63,181 bases of DNA from Clostridia bacterium (GCA_045651205.1 JAZRSA010000011.1:1-63181), one strand, 5' to 3'. Positions 11,714 to 52,897 are shown, counted from the stretch's first letter. The notes: generated by a model from the letters alone, not told the origin. Program-made: numbers and translations.

Positions 11714-12169
11714 CTAGTTACAAGGATACATCTCTACTGTTTCTTCTTTGAAATATACCTCTTTATTAATAGCAGATTCCAAAACTTTTCTTAATTCTTC
11801 TTTATTACCATACCATTCAATAAGATTTACATACTCAGCTATATCCAGCCATTTGTGCTCTATACTTTCTTCATTTAAAACAACAGCATCGCCAGATACA
11901 AACGAAACAAATGCATACTCTATACAATCTACACCAAGCGAGTTATATTTGAATATCCAATTAAGATATATGCATTCTGTTATATCTAGATTTGTTTCCT
12001 CTTTTACCTCTCTTTTTACTGTATCTGCTAATGATTTATCCCCATCTTCCACACCGCCTGTAACAGTATACCAAAACGATTTATTATATTGCGGATCATG
12101 TGGACTACCTAGAAGCAAAAGTAGCTTATTTGTGTTTTTATTTATTACAAATGTTAATATTTTGTTCAT
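11714..12169 (-). CDS. NUDIX hydrolase
   Basis: Nudix box GGVEDGDKSLADTVKREVKEETNL. Confidence 0.8.
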   Translation of the reverse strand: MNKILTFVINKNTNKLLLLLGSPHDPQYNKSFWYTVTGGVEDGDKSLADTVKREVKEETNLDITECIYLNWIFKYNSLGVDCIEYAFVSFVSGDAVVLNEESIEHKWLDIAEYVNLIEWYGNKEELRKVLESAINKEVYFKEETVEMYPCN

Positions 12170-12236: not shown

Positions 12237-13172
12237 TTAGCCTAAGCAAAGTTCAATTAGTTTAATATATTGATCTTGTGCATTTAAACAAGTATCTATT
12301 AAATATCCCTTTTCTCTTCCAAATTGATATTCTTTTAATCCCCTATAATAGAACAGCTTATCTTTATCTAATATTATGAAAGGAATTATATTATTCTTTA
12401 AGCATTCCTTAAACATTATTATTCTTCCTATTCTTCCGTTACCATCTTGGAATGGATGTATCTTTTCAAATTTAGCATGGAATTCTATTATATCTCTAGC
12501 TTCTACTTTTTCTAATGAGTTATACCATTCTAATAATTTCTTCATGTCCTTTTCTACATTCTTAGGTTCCGTTGTTGGTAGTTCACCTGCAGAATTAGCT
12601 AAACTTTTATAATCTCCAACATTAAACCATGATTTAGTGCTATCCATTGTTCCTTCTTTCAATATCTTATGGAATTTCTTTATGCATTCTTCTGTCAAAG
12701 TTTCATCTGCAATATCTAACATATAGTCTACTAGTTTAAAGTGATTTGCTGTTTCTAATATATCGTCTACACTAGCTACAGTATTTGCTTCAAATAGAAT
12801 AGTATTAGTTTCATAAATATGTCTGGTTTGGTCTTCTGTTAATCTACTTCCCTCAATATGATTTGTGTTATATGCAAACATTATTTGAGTTCTGTAATAC
12901 AAATTACCTTTTAACTTCATTTCCTTTTGTTCTCTTAATACTTCTAACACATTTACATTAGATATATCCAACTTTTTTTCTTCCGCTATTAATTCATCTA
13001 CACTTATCTTAAATGTATCTGCTAGTCTTCTTAAAGACTCTATATTAGGTTCTGCTAAACCTAATTCATATTTAGATACAGCTTTTGCTTCTACACCTAG
13101 TATTTCTGCTACTTCCTTTTGTGTCATTCCAGCTTTTTCCCTATATTCTTTTATTCTGTTTCCAATGCTCAT
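12237..13172 (-). CDS. XRE-type HTH + Fic domain protein (AMPylase family)
   Basis: N-terminal HTH (IKEYREKAGMTQKEVAEILGV) and the canonical Fic motif HPFQDGNGRIGR. Start set at MSIGNR with RBS AAGGAG. Confidence 0.85.
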   Translation of the reverse strand: MSIGNRIKEYREKAGMTQKEVAEILGVEAKAVSKYELGLAEPNIESLRRLADTFKISVDELIAEEKKLDISNVNVLEVLREQKEMKLKGNLYYRTQIMFAYNTNHIEGSRLTEDQTRHIYETNTILFEANTVASVDDILETANHFKLVDYMLDIADETLTEECIKKFHKILKEGTMDSTKSWFNVGDYKSLANSAGELPTTEPKNVEKDMKKLLEWYNSLEKVEARDIIEFHAKFEKIHPFQDGNGRIGRIIMFKECLKNNIIPFIILDKDKLFYYRGLKEYQFGREKGYLIDTCLNAQDQYIKLIELCLG

Positions 13173-13342
13173 ATATTTCTCCTTAAGTATCCATTTTAGA
13201 TACATCACATTAATATTATACCACATTGTATCTAAAAAAGATACTTTTGTGTGCAAAAAAGTATCTTAGAAATACATAAATGTAACAAAATAGACTCAAG
13301 AAGCAAAATACTTTTTGAGTCCACTTTATTCTTGCAGTTATA

Positions 13343-15729: not shown

Positions 15730-15833
15730 TAGTTGCCTCCGCTATAATATTTATAAATACCATTCTTAACTTTGAACAGTACTGTTTTATTATTAAATTA
15801 TATCCTATGCATATGATTATATCATATATATAC

Positions 15834-16478
15834 TTATGGTTTCATCAAATTATTACCATTAGAAATATCTTTCCATTCATTTTTTAGTAAAAGTAAAACA
15901 AATTTTGATATTTCTATAAATGAATTGGCATTTTCTTTAATATGTATTTTGAATCGTGTATAATCCTTTGATAATGATAGTTCAATAATATCATCATCTA
16001 GTGCTTGCGTTGAAGAAAAAACCGCACTATCTGAAAAATGAACAAATCTACAATAAAATTTATACATTTCTTCTATTCTCATACCATATTTTCTATTTAA
16101 TTCAGAGATAATATATGTATCATATAATTTTTGTTTTCCTATTTTATATTCACTTAGTTTTTTGTTTTCGCTCAAAATTGCAACTCCTAAAGTATCTATA
16201 TCCAGTCCAGATTTTATTAACATAGATATACCATAAATAAAGATACAATTATCAATTTGCAATCTAGATAATGAATTTAATGTCATTAAATTATTACTTT
16301 TTAATAGTGTTTTATACCCTTCGATTAACGCCAAACTTCGATTCAATACACTAGCGATTAATATTCTTTTATAATCGATTATTTCTAGTCCATCTAAATA
16401 ATTAAGCAAAAAACTTTTATACGCCTTAAAAAGCTCATCCATTTTATCTTTTAATTCTTTGTAGTCTACATTACACAT
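15834..16478 (-). CDS. helical hypothetical protein, paralog B of the pair flanking the PHP-ATPase
   Basis: Start set at MCNVDYK (GAGGTG RBS). Shares LNSLSRLQ and MYKFYCRFVHFS motifs with the protein at 19061-19948. Confidence 0.6.
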   Translation of the reverse strand: MCNVDYKELKDKMDELFKAYKSFLLNYLDGLEIIDYKRILIASVLNRSLALIEGYKTLLKSNNLMTLNSLSRLQIDNCIFIYGISMLIKSGLDIDTLGVAILSENKKLSEYKIGKQKLYDTYIISELNRKYGMRIEEMYKFYCRFVHFSDSAVFSSTQALDDDIIELSLSKDYTRFKIHIKENANSFIEISKFVLLLLKNEWKDISNGNNLMKP

Positions 16479-16517
16479 ATAACACCTCATTTATTTTGTA
16501 TATCAAAAATATATAAA

Positions 16518-16820
16518 TTAAGAAGCTGCTGTTTCATCAATTATATTTAGTTTTTGACTTACAATCGATGAAATTTCAGTTTTTAAATGTTCCACATATT
16601 TTTTTGCAACATCATAAAACAAATCTGTTCTATCAGTTTCATTAAATTTTATATCGATGTTTTGATTTTCAATTTTCTTTAATAAATCTTGGAAGAAATT
16701 TTTTAAATCCTCAACATTGTCACTAGTTAAATCTAGCGATAATGCTTCATCAAAATTAAATACAAGTATTTCTTTTTCATCTTTCGTGATTAAATCAACC
16801 GTTATTTCTTGATTATTCAT
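16518..16820 (-). CDS. small acidic hypothetical protein (100 aa)
   Basis: Start MNNQEITV with RBS GAGGGGAG. Its ATG overlaps the stop of the PHP-ATPase by 8 nt (tatATGaaTAA). Confidence 0.6.
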   Translation of the reverse strand: MNNQEITVDLITKDEKEILVFNFDEALSLDLTSDNVEDLKNFFQDLLKKIENQNIDIKFNETDRTDLFYDVAKKYVEHLKTEISSIVSQKLNIIDETAAS

Positions 16821-18951
16821 ATAAATCTCCCCTCTCTGCAAACGCTTCTATTCCACCTTCTAAATATTTTATACTTTGTTCTTTCCAACTTAATACATCT
16901 TCTTCATTTTCAATATTTACAAGCTTATCAGTAAACATGTTTCCTATATAAGTCTTATAACGATTATTATCTATGGTTTTTAGTATGCTATTCAACGGAC
17001 GTGTTCTAACTGCAATATTAGCATCATGTGTTGCGACAACTAATATTTTTTGTGCTCTAGACAAATCTTTGAATAACGGAACTATTACTTCATTAATATA
17101 AGTACTTCCTAAACTCAAATCAGGTTCATCTACTAAAAACACTTTCTTTCCATTTTTTGATATTAACTCATGTTGTAATGCTAATATTGATTTTTCCCCT
17201 TTAGATGGTTTATAACCAACCGAATCAATAGTAAAATCTTTTTTTATTGATATAAAATCCGTCATGGATTTTATCCCCTTATCATATAGTTCTTTAATCT
17301 CTTTAATTATTCTTGGTATTTCGTGTGATGTATAAGATGACTTTATATTTTGCACATTTGTTACAAAACATTTTAAATCACCTTTATTATGTTTTAAAGT
17401 TTTATGATCAATTGATGATTTATTCGTAGAATTAATAAACGAATAATTAATAGTTAAGTTTACTTTGCCTTTAGAGCCCAAATTTCCTATATATTCATCT
17501 ACATTATTAACCTCCTCATTTAATTCATTTAATATTTTTTCAGCATTATTTCTTATTTTCAATCGGTTTTTAGCAAACACTGCAAATCCTGTTTCAACCG
17601 GTGGTGTTGGTTCGCCGATGTTTTCAGAAACATATATAGGAATTTTTGTAGCAAAGTCATCAATTAAATATTCGGACTTTTGATTGTACCACTCATCAAT
17701 TGCATCCTTGTAAGAAGCTACTGATAATTTAGTTAATAATTTTAGCATCACTTTATTTTCTGCAGATGTTAATAGGGCTTTTGCATTTAAACTTTTATAT
17801 TCTCTTAAGAAATTTGTAATCTTCTTATATTCGCTATACTTTTTATTATATTTATCTTCATTATATAAATGTCTTTTATCTATTAGCAAACACTTCATTT
17901 TGTCTTTACTGGCTTTTTTTAATTGTTTTTTGAAATATTCTATATAATTTTTTATATTTGTAGGAGTAGTATCAATAAAATTCGCTATTTGGCTTAATTC
18001 CGTTTCATTATTGTTTACAGTTGGGATATTTTTTATATCATATTCATCAGGATTAATACTAATTAAATTCGAATACCACATCTCTTTATCGCCACCTGTA
18101 TAATAGATAGGTTCTTCATTTTTTTCCAATGTATAATAATCCCTTAGTGATTCCAATATTTCACTTTTTCCGCTTCCTTTATCTCCAAAAATAACATTTA
18201 CATCGTTATATATTGGTATATCAAATGGAAATTCTTTGGTGTTATTTTTTCCATATACTCTAACTTTTTCACTTAATTCTTCTTCCGCTAAATCTTTTAG
18301 AAACGTTACATCTTTTTCTATTATTTTAATAAAAGATATATAATCCTTTATTTCGAATTTTAATTCACCAAAATTATATTTTTCATATTTATTCCAATCA
18401 ATAACGTCAGTTCCAACAACAACTCTATGTTTATTGGATTGTAACACAGTAATTGATGTCAACGAACTTGGTTCTTTAAAAAGTCTTTTTTTATTTATCA
18501 TAATATTTTCGAATGTCTCTATATCATCTAATGATAATTCTTTTTTCTTAAAACAATGAACAACATAAACTAAGTCTAAATCTTTTACTTTTTCATATAA
18601 TTCGTCTAATTTTATTTCAAATTCATCTTGCGTAACACCATTCAATAATTCACTCATTTTTACAGAAAACATTTCAACATCTTCTGGATTAGAAATAAGA
18701 ATTAAATGTCCTTTTTTACCACTTGCGCCAATAACATCTAACTCAATTCCAGGCCATACCTGGCAGATATCTTTAACATTTTCTTTAAATAATAGGTATT
18801 GCTCTTTATCAAATAAATTATGATTAGTTATTGCTATTATTTTTACTTCGCTTAATAGAACTTTTTCTCGAAACACTTCCAATGATACGTTTCTTGTTTC
18901 AGCTTCATCATTTTTAGTTTTTATTGTATGGCAATGAAAATCAATCTTCAT
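16813..18951 (-). CDS. PHP-domain phosphoesterase fused to an ABC/SMC-type ATPase (Gao Ppl-like defence candidate)
   Basis: N-terminus MKIDFHCHT...ITNHN is a PHP His motif. Walker A GDKGSGKS, signature-like PSKGEKS, Walker B VFLVDEPDLSLG, H-loop VVATHD. RBS AAGGAGG. Confidence 0.7.
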   Translation of the reverse strand: MKIDFHCHTIKTKNDEAETRNVSLEVFREKVLLSEVKIIAITNHNLFDKEQYLLFKENVKDICQVWPGIELDVIGASGKKGHLILISNPEDVEMFSVKMSELLNGVTQDEFEIKLDELYEKVKDLDLVYVVHCFKKKELSLDDIETFENIMINKKRLFKEPSSLTSITVLQSNKHRVVVGTDVIDWNKYEKYNFGELKFEIKDYISFIKIIEKDVTFLKDLAEEELSEKVRVYGKNNTKEFPFDIPIYNDVNVIFGDKGSGKSEILESLRDYYTLEKNEEPIYYTGGDKEMWYSNLISINPDEYDIKNIPTVNNNETELSQIANFIDTTPTNIKNYIEYFKKQLKKASKDKMKCLLIDKRHLYNEDKYNKKYSEYKKITNFLREYKSLNAKALLTSAENKVMLKLLTKLSVASYKDAIDEWYNQKSEYLIDDFATKIPIYVSENIGEPTPPVETGFAVFAKNRLKIRNNAEKILNELNEEVNNVDEYIGNLGSKGKVNLTINYSFINSTNKSSIDHKTLKHNKGDLKCFVTNVQNIKSSYTSHEIPRIIKEIKELYDKGIKSMTDFISIKKDFTIDSVGYKPSKGEKSILALQHELISKNGKKVFLVDEPDLSLGSTYINEVIVPLFKDLSRAQKILVVATHDANIAVRTRPLNSILKTIDNNRYKTYIGNMFTDKLVNIENEEDVLSWKEQSIKYLEGGIEAFAERGDLYE

Positions 18952-19060
18952 ATAATAAACCTCCTTATGAACATTTTTGTATAGTAGAGAAAATGCAACA
19001 ATAAGGCTTATCTACCATCTTATAATCTTTCATCACGTTAAATTCTCCTTTATACTCTAA

Positions 19061-19948
19061 CTAATATTGAAATATCTTTTTGTAACAATCTCTTCCACAA
19101 TATTTTTCTAAACGTCTACTTATATTTATGGTTATGTCATTTATTTCCTCATTTGAAAAATTCTCGATTGTTTTCAAATCATCTTTCATCATATTTTGCA
19201 ATTCTAATATGAATTGTTGTTCTTTATAATTGTAAATTTGATTTGCCTCAATAGACAAATCTATTATGTATTTATATTTTTTTAATTTACTCAATTCTTC
19301 ATTTTTGCTCCACTCTACTAATACGGATGAAAAAATATAAGAATAGAATAAAATTGTGTTTTCAGATTCTTTTAACTTATTTATTTTTACACTCGTTGCA
19401 TCCATATAAAATACCACCATAACATATACATAAAAAACACACACCGCTTGTCTAGCGACAACTTCCTCTTTCTCTATTTTATATAGAGTTTCCATTATTA
19501 TAGATGCATGAGAAAATTCACACAAGTTATCATATAAATATGTTAATACCCCTTTATTGAATATTCTATCAAAGAGTTCATCCTTTTTTATCACATAAAA
19601 ATACTCACTGAATTTTTCAGCTATAAAATATCTTATTTCACTTGAGCTATCTTTTTCTTCTTTTTTAGCTTTATTTATCATTTTGTATGCTTTTAACATT
19701 TCAGGATTTTTATCTAATACTATTCCTTTAAGCATCATTTCATATACATTACGGAGCAAAGAAAGTGACTCTAAAGTTTCTCCTCTTTTATACATATTTA
19801 TACTACTTATTAGCAATTCTCCTGCCATTGATAAATTATTTTTTACTTCTTCAATTAAGTTAGTCTCATTTATATATTTAATCTGCTTTTTAATGTTCTT
19901 TATAAACACTTTGTTTGCAATATTTATTCTTTCCTCTATGCTTTGCAT
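19061..19948 (-). CDS. helical hypothetical protein, paralog A of the pair flanking the PHP-ATPase
   Basis: Start MQSIEER (GAGGAG RBS). Motifs LESLSLLRNVYE and LYDNLCEFSHAS parallel those of 15834-16478. Confidence 0.6.
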   Translation of the reverse strand: MQSIEERINIANKVFIKNIKKQIKYINETNLIEEVKNNLSMAGELLISSINMYKRGETLESLSLLRNVYEMMLKGIVLDKNPEMLKAYKMINKAKKEEKDSSSEIRYFIAEKFSEYFYVIKKDELFDRIFNKGVLTYLYDNLCEFSHASIIMETLYKIEKEEVVARQAVCVFYVYVMVVFYMDATSVKINKLKESENTILFYSYIFSSVLVEWSKNEELSKLKKYKYIIDLSIEANQIYNYKEQQFILELQNMMKDDLKTIENFSNEEINDITINISRRLEKYCGRDCYKKIFQY

Positions 19949-20122
19949 ATAATCTCCTCTCACTATATTTCTTAGATGAATTTTACCATTTTTTTACTAT
20001 TAATTCAACCAAACGAGTACATTTTATTTCCATTTTTATACATTTGCCGATATATTTCGACCTATTATGACAAAAAAATAAAACCCAGATTAATTCTAGG
20101 TTTTATTTAGATATCTATTTGT

Positions 20123-22102
20123 TTATTTATAATCTATTTCTATATTTTCAGCTATCATTAGATTATTAGCGACATACTCATCTTCTTCAAACGAATAAGT
20201 AAACTCATTTGTTTTATTTATTCTACTTCTTAGATAATCCGCTAAAGCCTCGTCTTCACAATATATATAACAACCTTTTTGTCCTCTTGTCATTAATGTT
20301 CTATATGTGTTTTTAATAATCTCATCTGCTATTTTTAACGCTTTTTTAGGATCGTTTTTATATATTGTTTTTATTCCTTTTAGCGAGTTATCTGTTTTAG
20401 CTCTCTTTGTAAAATCCGTTACTATTTTACCATTTTCATATCTTAAGTCTTGTCCAATAATTACGCCTACATAATCGAATTCTAGGCCTTGAGATGTATG
20501 TATACAACCAACTTCATTAATTGAATTTTCATTTATTGCAAATGGTGTCGAATATGATTCTAAATTCCATCTCATAGCAAAATTATACTCTGGAAAAGTT
20601 ATATCATATACATCCTCTTTACTTTTACCTTTACTAATCCAGTTGTAACAATACCCTGCTAATAATCTTGCTTTATTATTTACTTCATTCAACTTAAATA
20701 TCTTTTCTTTTAATTCAGTTGGATTATCTAATATTTGAATATCATAATCTATATCAAAGCCATCACTATTTGCTGTTTCTCTTATTTGTAACACATCATC
20801 TATCCAAGCCAAATAGCCATCCGAACCATTACATCTAAATTGAGATTCTAGCTCTAGTATTTTTCTTTCTTCTCCTACTACATTAAACTCATCTAGATAT
20901 TTTTCAATTTCTGCTATTGAACCTATATCATAAATGTCTATTCTTTGAGTTTCATCAATAAAGAATACTGAAAACTTAGCAGCATTAATAATCTCTTTGA
21001 TTTGATTCTCTCCTTGATTCTTAAACATACCAGATTTTGCATTCAATCTATGTGCTTCATCTGCTAATATAACACCAACATCATCTTTTCCAGCTTCAGT
21101 ATAAATTCCTGAACCTTTAAACATGTTATCTATTTTAGATATTCTTTCTTTTCCTTTTAACTTTGCTTTAAACACACTTCTTGGTGCAGCATTCTTAGTT
21201 ACATAGTGGCATACCATTTCATATGGTTTGTTCGTTAAGTCTGCAAGCAAATTTATTGCTAAAACGGTTTTCCCTGTTCCCGGTCCACCTTTAACAATTA
21301 AACATCTCTTCTTACCATCTTCATTAGATTTTCTAGCCATTTCCATAGCAGTTTCATATACTACTTTTTGATTATCTAATAATATGAATTCAGAGTTTTG
21401 TTTAACCATTGAAGCTATACAATCTTGTAATGATTTAGAAGGTTTTATTTTACCATTCTCAATCATATATAATGTTTCTTTATCATCACCTTGTTTTACA
21501 TACTTATTTATAAATTCTCTTAGTTTGTATACATCTCCACTTATAAATACTGGTGCTTTTTCTATATAATCTTTATATTTTTCTGATAATACTGTTTTAG
21601 GTTCTACATCTTCATAATTATGCAAGTACGCACATGGATATAGCTTAACATTGTTGCGTTGCACATTCTCATTAAAATCTTCAATATATGCTGCATATGA
21701 CCAAGCTTGATAAGATGGATGTGGCACTTCTCTTAAAGATCCACCTGTAAATGTTTTAACTATTCCATCTTGACCTTCAACAATATCTGCCTCTGTCCAT
21801 TGTTTTAATTCTATTATTACAGCTATATTTCTTCCTTTATCATCTCTACCTGTTATAATAAAGTCTACTCTTTTTGAAGTATATGGGATTTTAAACTCAA
21901 TTGCTATTCCACTATTATTAGGAACAGTAACATCATTTAAAACATTACTCATATACATCATAGAGTTTTTCCAAGCTTCTTTTTCTCTAGGATTTACGTT
22001 TTGTCCTACTCTTAATCTATATAGTTGTTCTATTCTATTTGCTATATTATTCTCTATTACATCCTTTACAAACAATTCTTTTGTTGCTTCATATACTATC
22101 AT
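20123..22102 (-). CDS. DUF2075-type nuclease-helicase (PD-(D/E)xK-like N-domain + SF1 ATPase)
   Basis: KRVDFIITG...VIIELKQW (D...ExK), Walker A GGPGTGKT, Walker B ILADEAHRL, C-terminal IHTSQGLEFDYVGVIIG. Confidence 0.75.
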   Translation of the reverse strand: MIVYEATKELFVKDVIENNIANRIEQLYRLRVGQNVNPREKEAWKNSMMYMSNVLNDVTVPNNSGIAIEFKIPYTSKRVDFIITGRDDKGRNIAVIIELKQWTEADIVEGQDGIVKTFTGGSLREVPHPSYQAWSYAAYIEDFNENVQRNNVKLYPCAYLHNYEDVEPKTVLSEKYKDYIEKAPVFISGDVYKLREFINKYVKQGDDKETLYMIENGKIKPSKSLQDCIASMVKQNSEFILLDNQKVVYETAMEMARKSNEDGKKRCLIVKGGPGTGKTVLAINLLADLTNKPYEMVCHYVTKNAAPRSVFKAKLKGKERISKIDNMFKGSGIYTEAGKDDVGVILADEAHRLNAKSGMFKNQGENQIKEIINAAKFSVFFIDETQRIDIYDIGSIAEIEKYLDEFNVVGEERKILELESQFRCNGSDGYLAWIDDVLQIRETANSDGFDIDYDIQILDNPTELKEKIFKLNEVNNKARLLAGYCYNWISKGKSKEDVYDITFPEYNFAMRWNLESYSTPFAINENSINEVGCIHTSQGLEFDYVGVIIGQDLRYENGKIVTDFTKRAKTDNSLKGIKTIYKNDPKKALKIADEIIKNTYRTLMTRGQKGCYIYCEDEALADYLRSRINKTNEFTYSFEEDEYVANNLMIAENIEIDYK

Positions 22103-23117: not shown

Positions 23118-24287
23118 TCATTTTTGTTCATCTTTTAATTTTATCTTTAAATTCATAGGTATTATTTTATTTTCTTCCTCTTCTTCTAATTTTAGTCTTC
23201 CTTCTTCTAATCCAAATAAAATTTCAACTTCTCTCGGATTCATTGGCAATCCTCTTTTTTCAAATTCTTTCATTAAAGTTTTGCTTGTAAAAACATCATT
23301 CTCTAACAACATCTCAATCGAATTTTTTAACAGTTGTGGTTGCGGAATATTAATAATTCCATCTAAAGGCTCATTCTTCCTATAATTAAGTATATTATAT
23401 TGTTTAATTAAATATTTAAACTGGTTATCTGTTATAACACCTAGGTTTAATGCCTTCATCATCATTGCCAAAATAGAAACATGCCATTTATTCTTTAGCA
23501 TTTCATAACATTTTAAGTTTGTAGGATGTATTAGATCTTTTATAAATTCATCAGAGGGTAATAAAAATTCGGAAGCAAAAAGATTTGCTTGTCTTTCTAT
23601 TTCTCTAAATTCTTTTCTATCTACTTCATCCATATTAACTGTAGTAGAATGTAATATAATATGTCCCAATTCATGTGCTGCGCTAAACTGTCTTCTTACT
23701 GCTGAAGTTTTTTCTTCTTCCAATACGACACATAAATATCTAATTCCATCTATATCTATATATTGGGTAAATGCATCTATGCTTTGTGTATGAGTATCTA
23801 AACTTTTTACCAAAATTCCATTTTTTTCCATAACATAAACCATATCTTTTATAGGTTTAGTACTTAATCCCCAAAATTCTCTTAATTCTCTTGCTATTTC
23901 TACTATATCTTTATCCGACCTTATATTTATTTTCATATTTGGTAAATTAATTCTCGGAAATTCTACATATTCATTTATTATTTCAAAAATTCTTAATAGC
24001 ATCTCTATTTTATATGTTTGCGCTGTTTTTTCTTTTTTTGTTGTTGATAGTAATGCTCTATAAAATGTATTTTCCATTTTTACAGTTTTATTATCATCAG
24101 TGTAAAAAAAAGCGAATGGGAAATTTAATTGCCTTGAAATACTAAACATTGCCTTTAGCGGTGGTTCATTCCCGTTTTCATAAAATGATATTGTTTGTTT
24201 GGTTAAACCTACTTTTTCGCCAAGTTCATCACACGTCATAGCATTATATATTCTTGCAAATTTTAACCTTTCGCTATTAAATTTCAT
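23118..24287 (-). CDS. XRE HTH + ImmA/IrrE-type zinc metallopeptidase fusion
   Basis: N-terminal HTH (LKFARIYNAMTCDELGEKVGLTKQTISFYENG) and the HEXXH motif AAHELGHIILH. Start at MKFNSE with RBS GGAGGGG. Confidence 0.8.
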   Translation of the reverse strand: MKFNSERLKFARIYNAMTCDELGEKVGLTKQTISFYENGNEPPLKAMFSISRQLNFPFAFFYTDDNKTVKMENTFYRALLSTTKKEKTAQTYKIEMLLRIFEIINEYVEFPRINLPNMKINIRSDKDIVEIARELREFWGLSTKPIKDMVYVMEKNGILVKSLDTHTQSIDAFTQYIDIDGIRYLCVVLEEEKTSAVRRQFSAAHELGHIILHSTTVNMDEVDRKEFREIERQANLFASEFLLPSDEFIKDLIHPTNLKCYEMLKNKWHVSILAMMMKALNLGVITDNQFKYLIKQYNILNYRKNEPLDGIINIPQPQLLKNSIEMLLENDVFTSKTLMKEFEKRGLPMNPREVEILFGLEEGRLKLEEEEENKIIPMNLKIKLKDEQK

Positions 24288-24343
24288 AGTTTCCCCTCCA
24301 TAATAAGTAGAATAAGTAGGGCACCATATCATGCCCCCTTACC

Positions 24344-25045
24344 TTAATTTGTTTTTCGGTCCTTGTCCTTGTTGACTATAGATAGGTTTTGATTAGGTCT
24401 TATCATTTCTTTTGCTTTAGTTGTTAAGCCTAAACCTATAGCTTGCTTTTCTTCAGATTCTAATTTGTCATTATCTCTTAAGTTGTATTGAATTGTTTCT
24501 TCGTCTTTAATGTATTCTCTTTTTACAATTTCCAGGTCTTCATTAATTGTAGCTATACTTATTACCGGATTGCTGCGATTTGAATCATCTATAATAAACG
24601 TTTCATAGCCATCAGGAACAAATCCAAATATTTGCATAAGTTCTTCTTCTCGATTCATCTGTATATCAGCGGCTTCATCAAACAAAGATTGCTGTTTTTG
24701 TTGCGCTTCCATACCTTTATTTACACTAGCCAAGCTATATAAATAATGTCGTTTGTTTTTCTTATTTCTAACACGAACAAGATTTTTCTCCGTAATTATA
24801 CTACACACTAAGCAATCATTTTCATCGACTACTAATGCCATCTTAAATATTCCACGATCACAATCTACTATTTTTAACGAAGATTCCGCCAATTCATTGC
24901 GCACATTGCTAAAAATATAGTCCCATTTTAGCATATGTCTTCCGTTACCGTATCTTAAACCAGTTTCGAAATAAAACTCAGGAACATCTGTTGTTATGGC
25001 CGTCTTAATCGCTTTAGATATTATTTTTATCTCTTCTTTAGTCAT
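24344..25045 (-). CDS. hypothetical protein upstream of HTH-ImmA/IrrE (possible partner)
   Basis: 233-aa ORF with RBS AAGGAGG, 56 nt upstream of the ImmA gene on the same strand; no recognisable motif. Confidence 0.55.
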   Translation of the reverse strand: MTKEEIKIISKAIKTAITTDVPEFYFETGLRYGNGRHMLKWDYIFSNVRNELAESSLKIVDCDRGIFKMALVVDENDCLVCSIITEKNLVRVRNKKNKRHYLYSLASVNKGMEAQQKQQSLFDEAADIQMNREEELMQIFGFVPDGYETFIIDDSNRSNPVISIATINEDLEIVKREYIKDEETIQYNLRDNDKLESEEKQAIGLGLTTKAKEMIRPNQNLSIVNKDKDRKTN

Positions 25046-26340: not shown

Positions 26341-26721
26341 TTATCCTTTCAACTTCTCCACAATAAACAAATCTGCTGGTGCAAATTCAAAATTGTCTAG
26401 CTCTGTATTTGTTACCCATCTGTATGCTTCATGTTCTAACAACTTAATTTCACCACCTGTTTTCGTACATGATAGTGCTATTAAATTTATCTGTTTTTCT
26501 GGATATATAAATGTTTTTTCTGCTAGATATTCATTTACTTCTATATCCATATCTAGTTCTTCTTTTATTTCACGTACTATTGCTTGTTCACGTGTTTCAT
26601 TTGGTTCTATTTTACCACCCGGGAATTCCCATAGTCCACCTTGAGACTTTTTAAGATTTCTTTGTGTTATTAGTATTTTATCTTGTTCGTCTTTTATTAC
26701 TGCTGCTACTACATTTATCAT
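26341..26721 (-). CDS. NUDIX hydrolase, MutT-like
   Basis: GGLWEFPGGKIEPNETREQAIVREIKEELD Nudix box. Confidence 0.8.
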   Translation of the reverse strand: MINVVAAVIKDEQDKILITQRNLKKSQGGLWEFPGGKIEPNETREQAIVREIKEELDMDIEVNEYLAEKTFIYPEKQINLIALSCTKTGGEIKLLEHEAYRWVTNTELDNFEFAPADLFIVEKLKG

Positions 26722-26816: not shown

Positions 26817-27836
26817 CTAATATCCTTCTATTTCTTCAGCAACCATAAATTCTACTTCAGAACAATCTTCGTTTAAATCGATCATATTAGCATTGCAGAA
26901 TATATTTTCTCTATGATATCTTAAATATTCTTCAGATCCATTTTGTAAACGATATATTTTTCCGTTTTTTAAATTTAACAACTGTCTATTTCTATTAGTT
27001 AGAAACGGAGAAACCATTAACTCACCACTATCTTTAAATGAGATAAATCCTAAATCAAATAGCACATGATATGTTGGTGTCATTGTTATTCCATTTTTAT
27101 AGTCATATTTTTCATTGTCTGAGCAAACTCTATGCGGTTTTATATGGCACGCCTGCAATATTCTATCATCAGTTACGGATGTAAATATACACGCTGGCAT
27201 TTCCATAATTAGTTTTTGGCGATATTCTTGTTGCTTTAGTCTACCTTTCTTTTTAGCCTCAACAACAGCTTGTTCAGCACCTTCATCAATTATATTTTCT
27301 AAAACTTCTTCTTTTCCACTCACTCTATTAAAATAAATAGGTCTCATGTATATATATTTTTTACCATTTCGATCATCAATTAATTTTATAAAACAAAATT
27401 TTGTAACTCTTGGTACACTTATGTTTCTGATATAATTATAGTTTTGGTTATACGTTGGATCTTTTTCTACATCTAAAACTAAATAATACCTGTTTTGAGC
27501 GTCATAAGTTTTTTTAAAGCCGTACTTTATAACCTCTTCTAATATTTCGTTTGTCTCATTTAATTTTTTTGAATATAATTCACTTAAATTTTCTTTATAT
27601 TCTTGAATAGGATTAAAGAATTCTTCTTTTGCCTCATCCAAATATTTTAACAAATCACTTTTATATGAAAAAATATACTCTACATTTTCGAAATCAAAAA
27701 ACTCATCATATCTTTCTTCATCATGACCAATATAAATTCTTTTTTCACCCATTCCAGTTGAATCTTTAAGTTTAAAATCCTTAGAAGCGGCCGAATCTAC
27801 AAAATTTATATCAAATGCATCTATTCTTTTAAACAC
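26817..27836 (-). CDS. HNH-family restriction endonuclease candidate
   Basis: C-terminal ACHIKPHRVCSDNEKYDYKNGITMTPTYHVLFDLGFISF (HNH_2-type). The ATG abuts the stop of the upstream methyltransferase gene. Confidence 0.65.
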   Translation of the reverse strand: MFKRIDAFDINFVDSAASKDFKLKDSTGMGEKRIYIGHDEERYDEFFDFENVEYIFSYKSDLLKYLDEAKEEFFNPIQEYKENLSELYSKKLNETNEILEEVIKYGFKKTYDAQNRYYLVLDVEKDPTYNQNYNYIRNISVPRVTKFCFIKLIDDRNGKKYIYMRPIYFNRVSGKEEVLENIIDEGAEQAVVEAKKKGRLKQQEYRQKLIMEMPACIFTSVTDDRILQACHIKPHRVCSDNEKYDYKNGITMTPTYHVLFDLGFISFKDSGELMVSPFLTNRNRQLLNLKNGKIYRLQNGSEEYLRYHRENIFCNANMIDLNEDCSEVEFMVAEEIEGY

Positions 27837-29021
27837 TCATATGCCCCCTTTTATATCGTCATCAAACACGCCGGTATCAAATATAGATCTCAACACTGCC
27901 ATCATTACATCCACAACTATAGAGTTACCTGCCTGTTTCTTTGTTTGCATTGGCGATACAACTATTTTAAACGAATCCGGAAATCCCATTAAGCGCAAGC
28001 ACTCGCGTTCTGTTAAATGTCTTAATATTCTTTTACCTTCTTTGTCAAAACCTAAAGTTATATAATTATCCACTCCCGCACGATGATGTTGAGTCATTGT
28101 TTTTAGAAGCGTTCTAGCAATTTTTAAATCTGTTTGTGTGGATGTTCTAAAATTTTTCGTTCCATTAGTTAAAACATAATCTCTAACCTTCGGTGTCAAA
28201 GTATGTTTTGCTTCTACTTCTCCAGAAACTTTATTTATATACAATTCTCCATTTTCTTTATAATTATAATTGTAATTTTCCTCATCATACTTGCAATTTT
28301 CTTCTAGGATATCTTGCATGTAAAATGGTAATTTTTCACTTCCTAAAGCTTTTGGATATACAAAATCTTTTGTTTTTAAATCCTCTCTAATACCTATTAC
28401 AAACAATCTTCTTCTTGTTTGTGGTATTCCATAATCTGCCGCATTTAGCACTTGTGGTTCTGTTATTCTATAATGTAATGTCTTTGTAAATACTTCCTGC
28501 ATTTTTTTCCACGTTTTACCGTTATCATGCGTTGTTAGGCCTCTTACATTCTCAAATATAAAAACCTTTGGCTGAACTTCATCTATTAGTCTAGCATATT
28601 CATAAAACAAAGTTCCTCTTACATCTTCCAAGCCACCTTGAAATCCAACTGTAGAAAAAGATTGACATGGGCTCCCGCCTACCAACAAATCTACTTTACC
28701 TTTATAATCTTTTCCATCTAGCAATCTAACATCTAAATGGAAATCGTCCTCATTTATATCATAATTAGCCAAATAACTTTGCTTTACAAAATTATTTTTT
28801 CTTGATTTTTTTTTATACAAATCATCTACATATTTCTTTTTGTCTACCTTATTATTTAAACTTTTTATTATTTCATTTTCTTTTTGAACATCTATATCTA
28901 TTTCTATCTCACCATTATCACAAGCAAATACCAATTGATAATCAATATTCAAACGTTTTAACGCTTGTTCTACAGCTCCAATGCCGCTAAATAACGTTCC
29001 TACCTTTAACATTCTCCCCAT
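27837..29021 (-). CDS. DNA (cytosine-5)-methyltransferase (second of two)
   Basis: FSGIGA (I), GGSPCQSFS (IV), ENVRGL (VI), QTRRRLFVIG (VIII), GNSIVV (X). Confidence 0.9.
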   Translation of the reverse strand: MGRMLKVGTLFSGIGAVEQALKRLNIDYQLVFACDNGEIEIDIDVQKENEIIKSLNNKVDKKKYVDDLYKKKSRKNNFVKQSYLANYDINEDDFHLDVRLLDGKDYKGKVDLLVGGSPCQSFSTVGFQGGLEDVRGTLFYEYARLIDEVQPKVFIFENVRGLTTHDNGKTWKKMQEVFTKTLHYRITEPQVLNAADYGIPQTRRRLFVIGIREDLKTKDFVYPKALGSEKLPFYMQDILEENCKYDEENYNYNYKENGELYINKVSGEVEAKHTLTPKVRDYVLTNGTKNFRTSTQTDLKIARTLLKTMTQHHRAGVDNYITLGFDKEGKRILRHLTERECLRLMGFPDSFKIVVSPMQTKKQAGNSIVVDVMMAVLRSIFDTGVFDDDIKGGI

Positions 29022-52692: not shown

Positions 52693-52737
52693 ATATTACT
52701 CCTTTTCTTATTCTTTTATTTATGATATAATTTTATT

Positions 52738-52897
52738 GCAATGAGGTGGACAATTGGCGCTTCCACATACCTTTATGGTCAAAAGAGATGAACGATAGGC
52801 GCCACGTTCCATTGCGAAGCCTAGTGACTTTGTCACTAGTTTTATCACACCACGTCATATTTGTTGAAACATATAAATATGTCGTGGTGTGTTTTTA
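52738..52897 (+). ncRNA. candidate small RNA of unknown class
   Basis: Extended -10 TGATATAAT at 52723-52731. Relatively GC-rich body with GGCGCC-containing stems. Two tandem hairpin+T-run elements (CTAGTGAC-ttt-GTCACTAG at 52821-52839; 14-bp stem at 52847-52890). No convincing ORF. Confidence 0.3.

Follow-up and report, generated by a model that had tools for sequence, protein, structure and literature searches.

Which of four closely packed genes in a bacterial defence island belong to one system, and is that system already catalogued? The question is raised by a DNA stretch of 63,181 nucleotides (nt) from a Clostridia bacterium (GCA_045651205.1 JAZRSA010000011.1:1-63181), which as a whole is referred to below as the window. 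Four open reading frames (ORFs), designated A, B, C and D, all lie on its minus strand. A preliminary description of the sequence had read them as a multi-gene variant of Ppl, a system said to have been first described by Gao et al. in 2020, in which B would encode the Ppl-like protein and A and D two paralogous helical partners. Comparative analysis leads to a different answer: the locus is a diverged form of a two-gene candidate that the catalogue already lists, PDC-M49, made up of B and C. D is a lineage-specific hitch-hiker or accessory, and A is an unrelated neighbour. The four genes are:

19061-19948, minus strand: gene A, 295 amino acids (aa) from ATG
16813-18951, minus strand: gene B, 712 aa
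16518-16820, minus strand: gene C, 100 aa
15834-16478, minus strand: gene D, 214 aa

The start of C overlaps the stop of B by 8 nt (ATGAATAA), exactly as first described. The spacing between A and B, previously given as 110 nt, measures 109 nt. D follows C after 39 nt when read from its 214-aa start, the start also called in homologs; the earlier figure of 27 nt belongs to an alternative 218-aa start at 16490, an ATG inside a GAGGTG ribosome-binding site.

The PHP-ATPase and its overlapping partner

The product of B joins a PHP phosphoesterase to a complete SMC/Rad50-like ABC ATPase. The motifs on which the preliminary description had based this architecture (DFHCHT, ITNHN, GDKGSGKS, PSKGEKS, VFLVDEPD and ATHD) are all present, and they occupy columns that are invariant in an alignment of 24 homologs with identities down to 34%. 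Also invariant in this alignment are D4, H6, H8, H44, E70, H82, H132 and D182 of the PHP domain, which we take, from general knowledge of the PHP family, to be candidate metal ligands. The invariant ATPase residues comprise Walker A (G256-K262), the signature (S583, G585 and E586), Walker B (D608 and E609) and the H-loop (H642). The parts of B map as follows:

18277..18951, minus strand: PHP domain (residues ~1-225), placed by invariant residues, the TrlF match and Foldseek
16816..18276, minus strand: ABC ATPase part, placed by Pfam AAA_21 and SMC_N and by invariant motifs
18163-18186, minus strand: Walker A
17188-17208, minus strand: ABC signature PSKGEKS
17119-17142, minus strand: Walker B, VFLVDEPD
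17023-17034, minus strand: H-loop, ATHD

Database searches agree with this division. Pfam assigns AAA_21 and SMC_N to B, and residues 2-103 match the N-terminus of NCBIfam TrlF_fam_ATP, a PHP-ATPase family, with an expect value (E) of 4e-14, a sub-threshold match whose score falls far short of the family cut-off. Among proteins of known structure, AriA of PARIS is nearest in sequence (E 2.5e-10). An AlphaFold2 (AF2) model of B (pLDDT 89) contains a helical arm at approximately residues 365-477, with long helices at 396-445 and 456-477. Foldseek retrieved the PHP domains of Pol III alpha and RNase AM (7ug9, TMt 0.65) for the N-terminus, and the heads of Rad50, SMC, RecN and JetC for the C-terminus. 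Homologs of B number 621, most of them full length at ~710 aa. Purifying selection acts on B, C and D, whose ratios of nonsynonymous to synonymous substitution rates (dN/dS) against relatives of about 87% identity (87% for B) are 0.10, 0.09 and 0.12, respectively.

Gene C, correctly described beforehand as an acidic 100-aa ORF, has a predicted isoelectric point (pI) of 4.3, and the median of its family is 4.5. We fetched 79 species-level genomic loci with B homologs, called their ORFs and clustered the neighbours, and the C-like ORF was the sole conserved neighbour family of B. A homolog of C, about 100-130 aa long and overlapping the stop of B, was found at 73 of the 79 loci; at four of the six others the sequence ends less than 270 nt from that stop. 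The conserved unit is therefore B plus C. The earlier view that B is not alone thus holds for C but does not extend to A and D, which are not general partners: A occurs beside B at none of these loci, and D is restricted to the clade of ~87% identity. The pair has been recovered from Bacillota, Actinomycetota (Collinsella and Eggerthellaceae), Saccharibacteria, a metagenome-assembled genome (MAG) of Terriglobales and one archaeon (a Methanobacteriota MAG), and pairs of the same type are also carried on plasmids of S. aureus, Clostridium, E. faecalis, Phaeobacter and Rhizobium.

A two-gene cassette of this kind is already in the PADLOC catalogue, so the novelty claimed for a multi-gene PHP-ATPase system no longer stands. 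PDC-M49 is a phage defence candidate (PDC) from a "guilt-by-embedding" screen (Payne et al., 2024, bioRxiv 10.1101/2024.01.29.577857). It is defined in the supplement as the cassettes FAM_00021>>FAM_01695 and FAM_00021>>FAM_02682, and was picked up through embedding in restriction-modification and BREX systems (10.1101/2024.01.29.577857). B matches the PDC-M49A model PDLC04680 at E 4.1e-33, with residues 2-712 aligned to profile positions 3-670 of 674, and model PDLC04678 at E 4.4e-27; PDC-M49A was matched by all 24 B-family members. The gene order is that of PDC-M49 as well, a large gene and then a small gene on the same strand joined by the 8-nt overlap. In the canonical pairs from Phaeobacter and E. 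faecalis plasmids, an M49A protein of ~675 aa is followed by an M49B protein of ~98 aa whose gene overlaps the stop of its partner, and PDC-M49, like the present pair, lies within or beside restriction-modification systems and defence islands.

The resemblance is incomplete, however. The Phaeobacter and E. faecalis large proteins score 1e-260 and 1e-195 against PDC-M49A, whereas B reaches only 4e-33, and the large protein of the S. aureus plasmid has no PDC-M49A match in PADLOC at all. Neither C nor any of 29 homologs matched the PDC-M49B profiles at E <= 0.01, whereas the Phaeobacter and E. faecalis small proteins, used as positive controls, matched at 4e-31. C likewise gave no match of value in PADLOC as a whole, Pfam or NCBIfam. 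The window also differs in having the clade-specific third gene D attached. Judged from these profile comparisons, B and C appear to form a divergent clade with the PDC-M49 architecture, its small subunit outside current profiles. Because the small partner escapes the existing profile, current defence finders likely overlook the pair, and PADLOC would probably miss the window locus if, as we assume, its rule requires both genes.

Membership of Ppl was rejected. The domain content of B does resemble that of Ppl, but the Ppl model of PADLOC (PDLC02208), on which the preliminary description had staked the assignment in advance, returned no match from B at E <= 0.1, and PDC-M49A was matched instead. 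Six of the 24 B-family members touch the Ppl model weakly (best E 7.5e-7), and no Ppl-like chain was returned by a PDB sequence search or a fold search with B.

On balance we consider it probable that the functional unit here is the two-gene module of B and C, a divergent PDC-M49 member inside a defence island. Several points weigh against this view. The final His expected in the canonical PHP D-x-H motif is not retained in the family, which reads GSDVxDW across the 24 homologs, and the catalytic competence of B is therefore uncertain. Profile comparison of the C family with two M49B proteins by hhalign was not significant; with the missing PDC-M49B match, this means that homology of the small partners across clades is unproven and that they may be merely analogous. 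The authors of PDC-M49 present all 145 PDC systems as untested candidates (10.1101/2024.01.29.577857), and no later report of its activity was found in the literature on PDC-M49 and on PHP/ABC-ATPase defence. A nuclease-fused ABC ATPase could in principle act in DNA repair instead of defence. Lastly, D could be a real third subunit, since B, C and D share cassette boundaries and similar synonymous rates (dS), and the two-gene statement would then be incomplete in this lineage.

A related arrangement was observed at another locus, L092 (956-3749, minus strand), where an 827-aa protein combines an ABC ATPase with a PHP domain homologous to that of B (hhalign probability 96%), and its gene is overlapped by a 108-aa acidic ORF. 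This protein has no PDC-M49A match, and it shares its island with a D homolog and with a pair of genes for a 5-methylcytosine (m5C) methyltransferase and an NgoFVII-type restriction enzyme. Its sequence suggests that this architecture has a third clade, one that is absent from the catalogue.

Genes D and A and the competing explanations

Alignment by blastn divides the four genes into two blocks of DNA with separate histories of relatedness:

15754..18966, minus strand: B-C-D cassette of 3.2 kb, a ~87% DNA homology block common to unrelated contexts (blastn)
19038..20108, minus strand: A block, 91% DNA homology to locus L125 (blastn)
20076-20108, minus strand: terminator hairpin after the upstream helicase gene, within the A block (consensus match only)
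19980-20008, minus strand: promoter-like site within the A block (consensus match only)
18965..19036, minus strand: junction of the A block and the B-C-D block (block boundaries by blastn)

D homologs of 86-88% identity directly follow B-C in every locus examined of the B clade with ~87% identity, at 24 places among those listed and with at least six different downstream contexts. Against loci L080, L086 and L089, homology extends from 15 nt upstream of the ATG of B to 80 nt past the stop of D. At L001, where B and C retain 80% protein identity, the DNA homology (81%) covers window positions 16530-18981, that is B-C only, and D is absent. No D homolog adjoins B at any of the 79 species-level loci, L001 included, by phmmer, tblastn or family and superfamily hidden Markov models (HMMs); only the ~87% clade has it. 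The dS values of the three genes are similar (0.48-0.65), as are their dN/dS ratios (0.09-0.12). The distribution suggests that D has been co-transferred with B-C at shallow depth and is not a general partner; it may be either an accessory or an independent neighbour of the pair.

The AF2 model of D (pLDDT 87) is an all-helical bundle, with no match at E < 0.1 in a fold search of the PDB. A D-family profile search collected 595 representatives, mostly stand-alone proteins of ~210 aa. Homologs with 45-58% identity to D sit in other defence islands: at L092 divergent from the m5C methyltransferase/NgoFVII-type pair, at L096 inside a type III restriction-modification island, and at L098 positioned 4 nt after an SLFN helicase gene. 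L092 and L080 share a skeleton of restriction-modification genes plus D (65-77% protein identity), with B-C lying between in L080, and from this comparison the older linkage of D may be with the restriction-modification genes.

Gene A belongs to a family of 92 proteins without a Pfam assignment, and no homolog of it adjoins a B homolog at the 79 species-level loci (phmmer, tblastn, and family and superfamily HMMs run on all ORFs). A copy with 91% identity in L125 has a different ABC-type ATPase gene downstream, and DNA homology between L125 and the window is confined to 19038-20108, which is A and its upstream region. Other members of the family lie directly after Shedu (L099), between an AAA_14/DUF4143 gene and a pair consisting of a 230-aa protein and a DEAD protein (L100), or between the same AAA_14/DUF4143 gene and Gabija (L104), with TnpV following in the last two cases. 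By these comparisons A is a self-contained defence-island gene, unrelated to B and repeatedly located upstream of varying defence cargo, and its adjacency to B-C-D across a 70-nt junction appears to reflect a recent joining of the two blocks and not a common function. Across L100-L106 and L125, the A family was seen to occupy a fixed site between the AAA_14/DUF4143 ATPase gene and variable cargo followed by TnpV, a setting that resembles a defence hotspot of a mobile element. The junction itself (18965-19036, minus strand) contains a 22-codon micro-ORF (MKDYKMVDKPYCCIFSTIQKCS) with an AAAGGAG ribosome-binding site, the stop of which overlaps the ribosome-binding site of B; it could be a leader peptide or a chance occurrence in AT-rich DNA.

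A and D had been proposed as paralogs, and this could not be upheld. A BLASTP comparison of the two gave E 0.46 and left the quoted shared motifs unaligned. Family profiles compared with hhalign reached a probability of 1.1% over 24 columns around the Y..LC..H.S motif, and A against a profile of the 84-member D superfamily reached 2.8% (E 0.016) over 150 columns. Local duplication was rejected on these three results; remote membership of a common superfamily is possible, and paralogy is not demonstrable from the sequences.

The suggested likeness to DUF5677 found faint support. A scores 19.9 bits (E 8e-4, residues 44-150) against Pfam DUF5677 (PF18928), under the gathering score of 27.1 bits, and two of 23 members of its family match at E <= 0.01. 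D and 21 close homologs give no match to DUF5677, and six of the 84 D-superfamily members match at E <= 1e-3 (best 2.3e-6), which would make the relation of D to DUF5677 a remote superfamily one at most. Like DUF5677 proteins, A and D are helical, measure ~200-300 aa, occur in defence contexts and carry L.R...(E/D) and Y..LC..SH motifs; unlike them, neither reaches the gathering score. A genuine DUF5677 protein from Rhizobium (Pfam 3e-18) contains both A/D motifs, '...LLRSAMEAHVDL...' and 'YNSLCNDSHNN', and these therefore look like superfamily signatures instead of evidence for a local duplication; only the short motif aligns when the A and D family profiles are compared with this protein.

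The gene for the Rhizobium protein was itself observed beside a PHP-ATPase. On R. hidalgonense plasmid pPR19E03 (L110 3995-7408), a 677-aa PHP-ATPase and an overlapping 98-aa ORF constitute a PDC-M49 pair by layout, and the DUF5677 gene follows on the same strand after 360 nt. A jackhmmer search started from this protein found no further A/D-type homolog beside B in the 79 loci. DUF5677 has been reported as enriched beside serine recombinases in defence cassettes, and the single DUF5677 ORF assayed by itself in E. faecalis gave no protection (PMC12632615).

The strongest competitor of the two-gene reading is a true three-gene system in this lineage, with D as a DUF5677-like third subunit (a sensor, a regulator or a second effector), which we regard as doubtful. 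It would explain why the ~87% homology block runs from the ribosome-binding site of B to 80 nt past D, why this block recurs intact in two left and at least six right contexts, and why the three genes have similar dS and low dN/dS; two further arrangements are consistent with it, namely the D homolog of L092 (58% identical to D of the window), which shares its island with the 827-aa PHP-ABC ATPase and the 108-aa acidic ORF, and the Rhizobium plasmid pair with its DUF5677 gene. Against these stand the absence of D from L001 and the other 78 species-level loci even with the superfamily profile, the count of zero DUF5677 genes among 46 tight B-C neighbours, the D homologs that lie beside type III restriction-modification genes or after an SLFN helicase with no PHP-ATPase nearby, the L080/L092 skeleton with its hint of an older restriction-modification link, and the inactivity of the lone DUF5677 ORF in E. 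faecalis (PMC12632615). A broader version of the same idea, that D is a working third component acquired in this lineage and that PHP-ABC ATPase modules recurrently team up with DUF5677-type proteins, would draw on three independent co-occurrences (the window cassette, the L092 island and the Rhizobium plasmid) and seems to us unlikely; if true, it would place the uncharacterised DUF5677 superfamily in a functional setting for the first time, with a sensing or regulatory role towards a nuclease-ATPase.

The four-gene Ppl-like system with two paralogous helical partners, as originally proposed, is largely refuted by the comparative context, and we hold it to be extremely improbable. The genes do share a strand and short gaps, there is a terminator before A and no terminator-like site between A and B, so that co-transcription is plausible, and A and D have two short motifs in common and are each faintly linked to DUF5677. 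Yet A lies outside the B-C-D homology block, in a block of its own that includes the promoter region and is followed, in the copy with 91% identity, by another ATPase gene; the more remote homologs of A lie before Gabija or the 230-aa/DEAD pair, or after Shedu, and none adjoins a B homolog. The insignificant A-D comparisons (hhalign probabilities of 1-3%) and the missing Ppl match of B also count against it. Very unlikely, too, is a non-immune role for B-C in mobile-element maintenance or DNA repair, for example as an end-processing nuclease similar to SbcCD/Mre11-Rad50, or in addiction, with C neutralising a toxic B. The Rad50/SMC/RecN-like fold of B, the frequency of the pair on plasmids and beside recombinases and transposases, and a small acidic partner overlapping a large gene in a manner reminiscent of antitoxins could all be read in this way. 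The neighbours of B-C are overwhelmingly restriction or defence genes, however: tight same-strand neighbours in other genomes include type I HsdR, ResIII/DEAD and SWI2/SNF2 helicases and SLFN helicases, as well as GmrSD, HNH nucleases, DUF6602, DUF4268 and Abi_alpha. By sequence, the ATPase has its best relatives among defence ATPases, the family was discovered through its embedding in restriction-modification and BREX systems, and an addiction-like layout would fit abortive-infection defence equally well and so offers no clean alternative.

Proposed action of the pair and related systems

For the two-gene module, we propose that B acts as a metal-dependent PHP nuclease joined to a SMC/Rad50-like ABC ATPase, probably as a dimer. 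Nucleotide binding and hydrolysis at the ATPase head, together with the short helical arm, would gate the nuclease or direct it towards invading DNA. C, which is translationally coupled to B, would most likely be a stoichiometric regulatory or adaptor subunit that keeps B inactive or ties it to a phage cue. A is upstream by chance and is probably the source of the promoter in the window: a strong terminator-like hairpin follows the helicase gene farther upstream and no terminator-like site was detected between A and B (consensus matches), so that read-through from the promoter of A into B-C-D is likely. What the sequence comparisons establish directly is the domain content, the conservation of the motifs and of B together with C, the limits of the cassette, purifying selection and the setting in a defence island. 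The nuclease activity of B, the role of C and the anti-phage function are inferred by analogy, the picture of B as an ATP-controlled nuclease acting on foreign DNA being drawn from Ppl, from PHP exonucleases generally and from the ABC-ATPase defence complexes PARIS, Septu and Gabija.

A summary of the Ppl work (PMC12904381) describes Ppl as a single-gene system and, in E. coli, as an NTP-inhibited PHP ssDNA 3'-5' exonuclease that senses 3'-OH ends; the mechanism was published in 2026 (Xu et al., Mol Cell 2026, a reference given in PMC13434339). Ppl and B both place a PHP phosphoesterase and an NTPase on one polypeptide in an anti-phage context, and the logic of an NTP-controlled PHP exonuclease is plausibly common to them. 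They differ in that B lacks the PADLOC Ppl match and is accompanied by a small partner at nearly all of its loci, whereas Ppl is a single-gene system.

By sequence, the ATPase half of B is closest to PARIS (AriA/AriB), Septu (PtuA/PtuB), Gabija (GajA/GajB), AbiL (AbiLi/AbiLii) and HEC-01, and in PADLOC B or members of its family match AriA, PtuA, GajA, AbiLi and HEC-01A. These systems, like B-C, combine an ABC ATPase, a nuclease function and a partner protein. In B, by contrast, a PHP domain attached in cis at the N-terminus serves as the nuclease, in place of a TOPRIM or HNH domain or a separate effector, and C differs from their partners in being an acidic 100-aa protein with no recognisable enzymatic domain.

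Fusions of PHP nucleases and ATPases are a small and only recently understood part of bacterial immunity. The B family, which comprises over 600 proteins and is found chiefly in gut Bacillota and Actinomycetota, pairs the domain logic of Ppl with a tightly coupled small acidic partner. Treating B and C as the unit would allow better annotation, for instance through a new profile for the small subunit, and would provide a clean two-gene construct for testing. The locus also illustrates that genes which look like members of one operon in a defence island may be distinct modules brought together recently, here at a 70-nt junction between two independently mobile blocks.

The surrounding island

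Genes A-D lie in a defence island that spans 12-33 kb of the window. Its other members are an HTH-Fic fusion, an SLFN/DUF2075 helicase (PDC-S41), a MazG-like protein, DUF1810, an XRE-M78 protein with DUF5986, NUDIX proteins, HNH_2 with two m5C methylases, and an SNF2 helicase. No convincing repeats marking the island boundaries were found. The helicase gene next to the A block is listed as neighbour E:

20123..22102, minus strand: gene E, a 659-aa Schlafen-group-3/DUF2075 helicase (Pfam SLFN-g3_helicase, E 2e-99; PADLOC PDC-S41, E 5e-19)

E is a candidate defence gene separate from the B-C pair. Homologs of this SLFN/DUF2075 helicase were seen directly beside B-C at L044, 4 nt from a D homolog at L098 and near an A homolog at L099, and a Schlafen-domain ORF has been reported as a potent defence in E. 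faecalis (PMC12632615).

Farther along the minus strand, at 26817-32968, the gene for a 904-aa SNF2-family helicase is grouped with one for an HNH_2 endonuclease and with a pair of neighbouring, paralogous m5C DNA methylase genes; the methylase genes form DNA repeats of 71-79% identity placed 1.1 kb apart. Together these genes are probably a restriction-modification or related defence module. At 23118-25045 (minus strand), a 404-aa fusion of an XRE helix-turn-helix (HTH) domain and an M78 (ImmA/IrrE-like) peptidase precedes a DUF5986 protein, and the two may serve the island as a regulator or sensor pair. An HTH_3-Fic/DOC fusion of 339 aa (12237-13256, minus strand) stands at the island edge, and NUDIX genes are located at 11714-12169 and 26341-26721. 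Elsewhere in the window, a match to the skipping-rope small RNA (41 bits) lies at 52736-52817 on the plus strand, and the end of the stretch (62490-63181, minus strand) is occupied by a tRNA, a 5S rRNA and the 3' end of a 23S rRNA.

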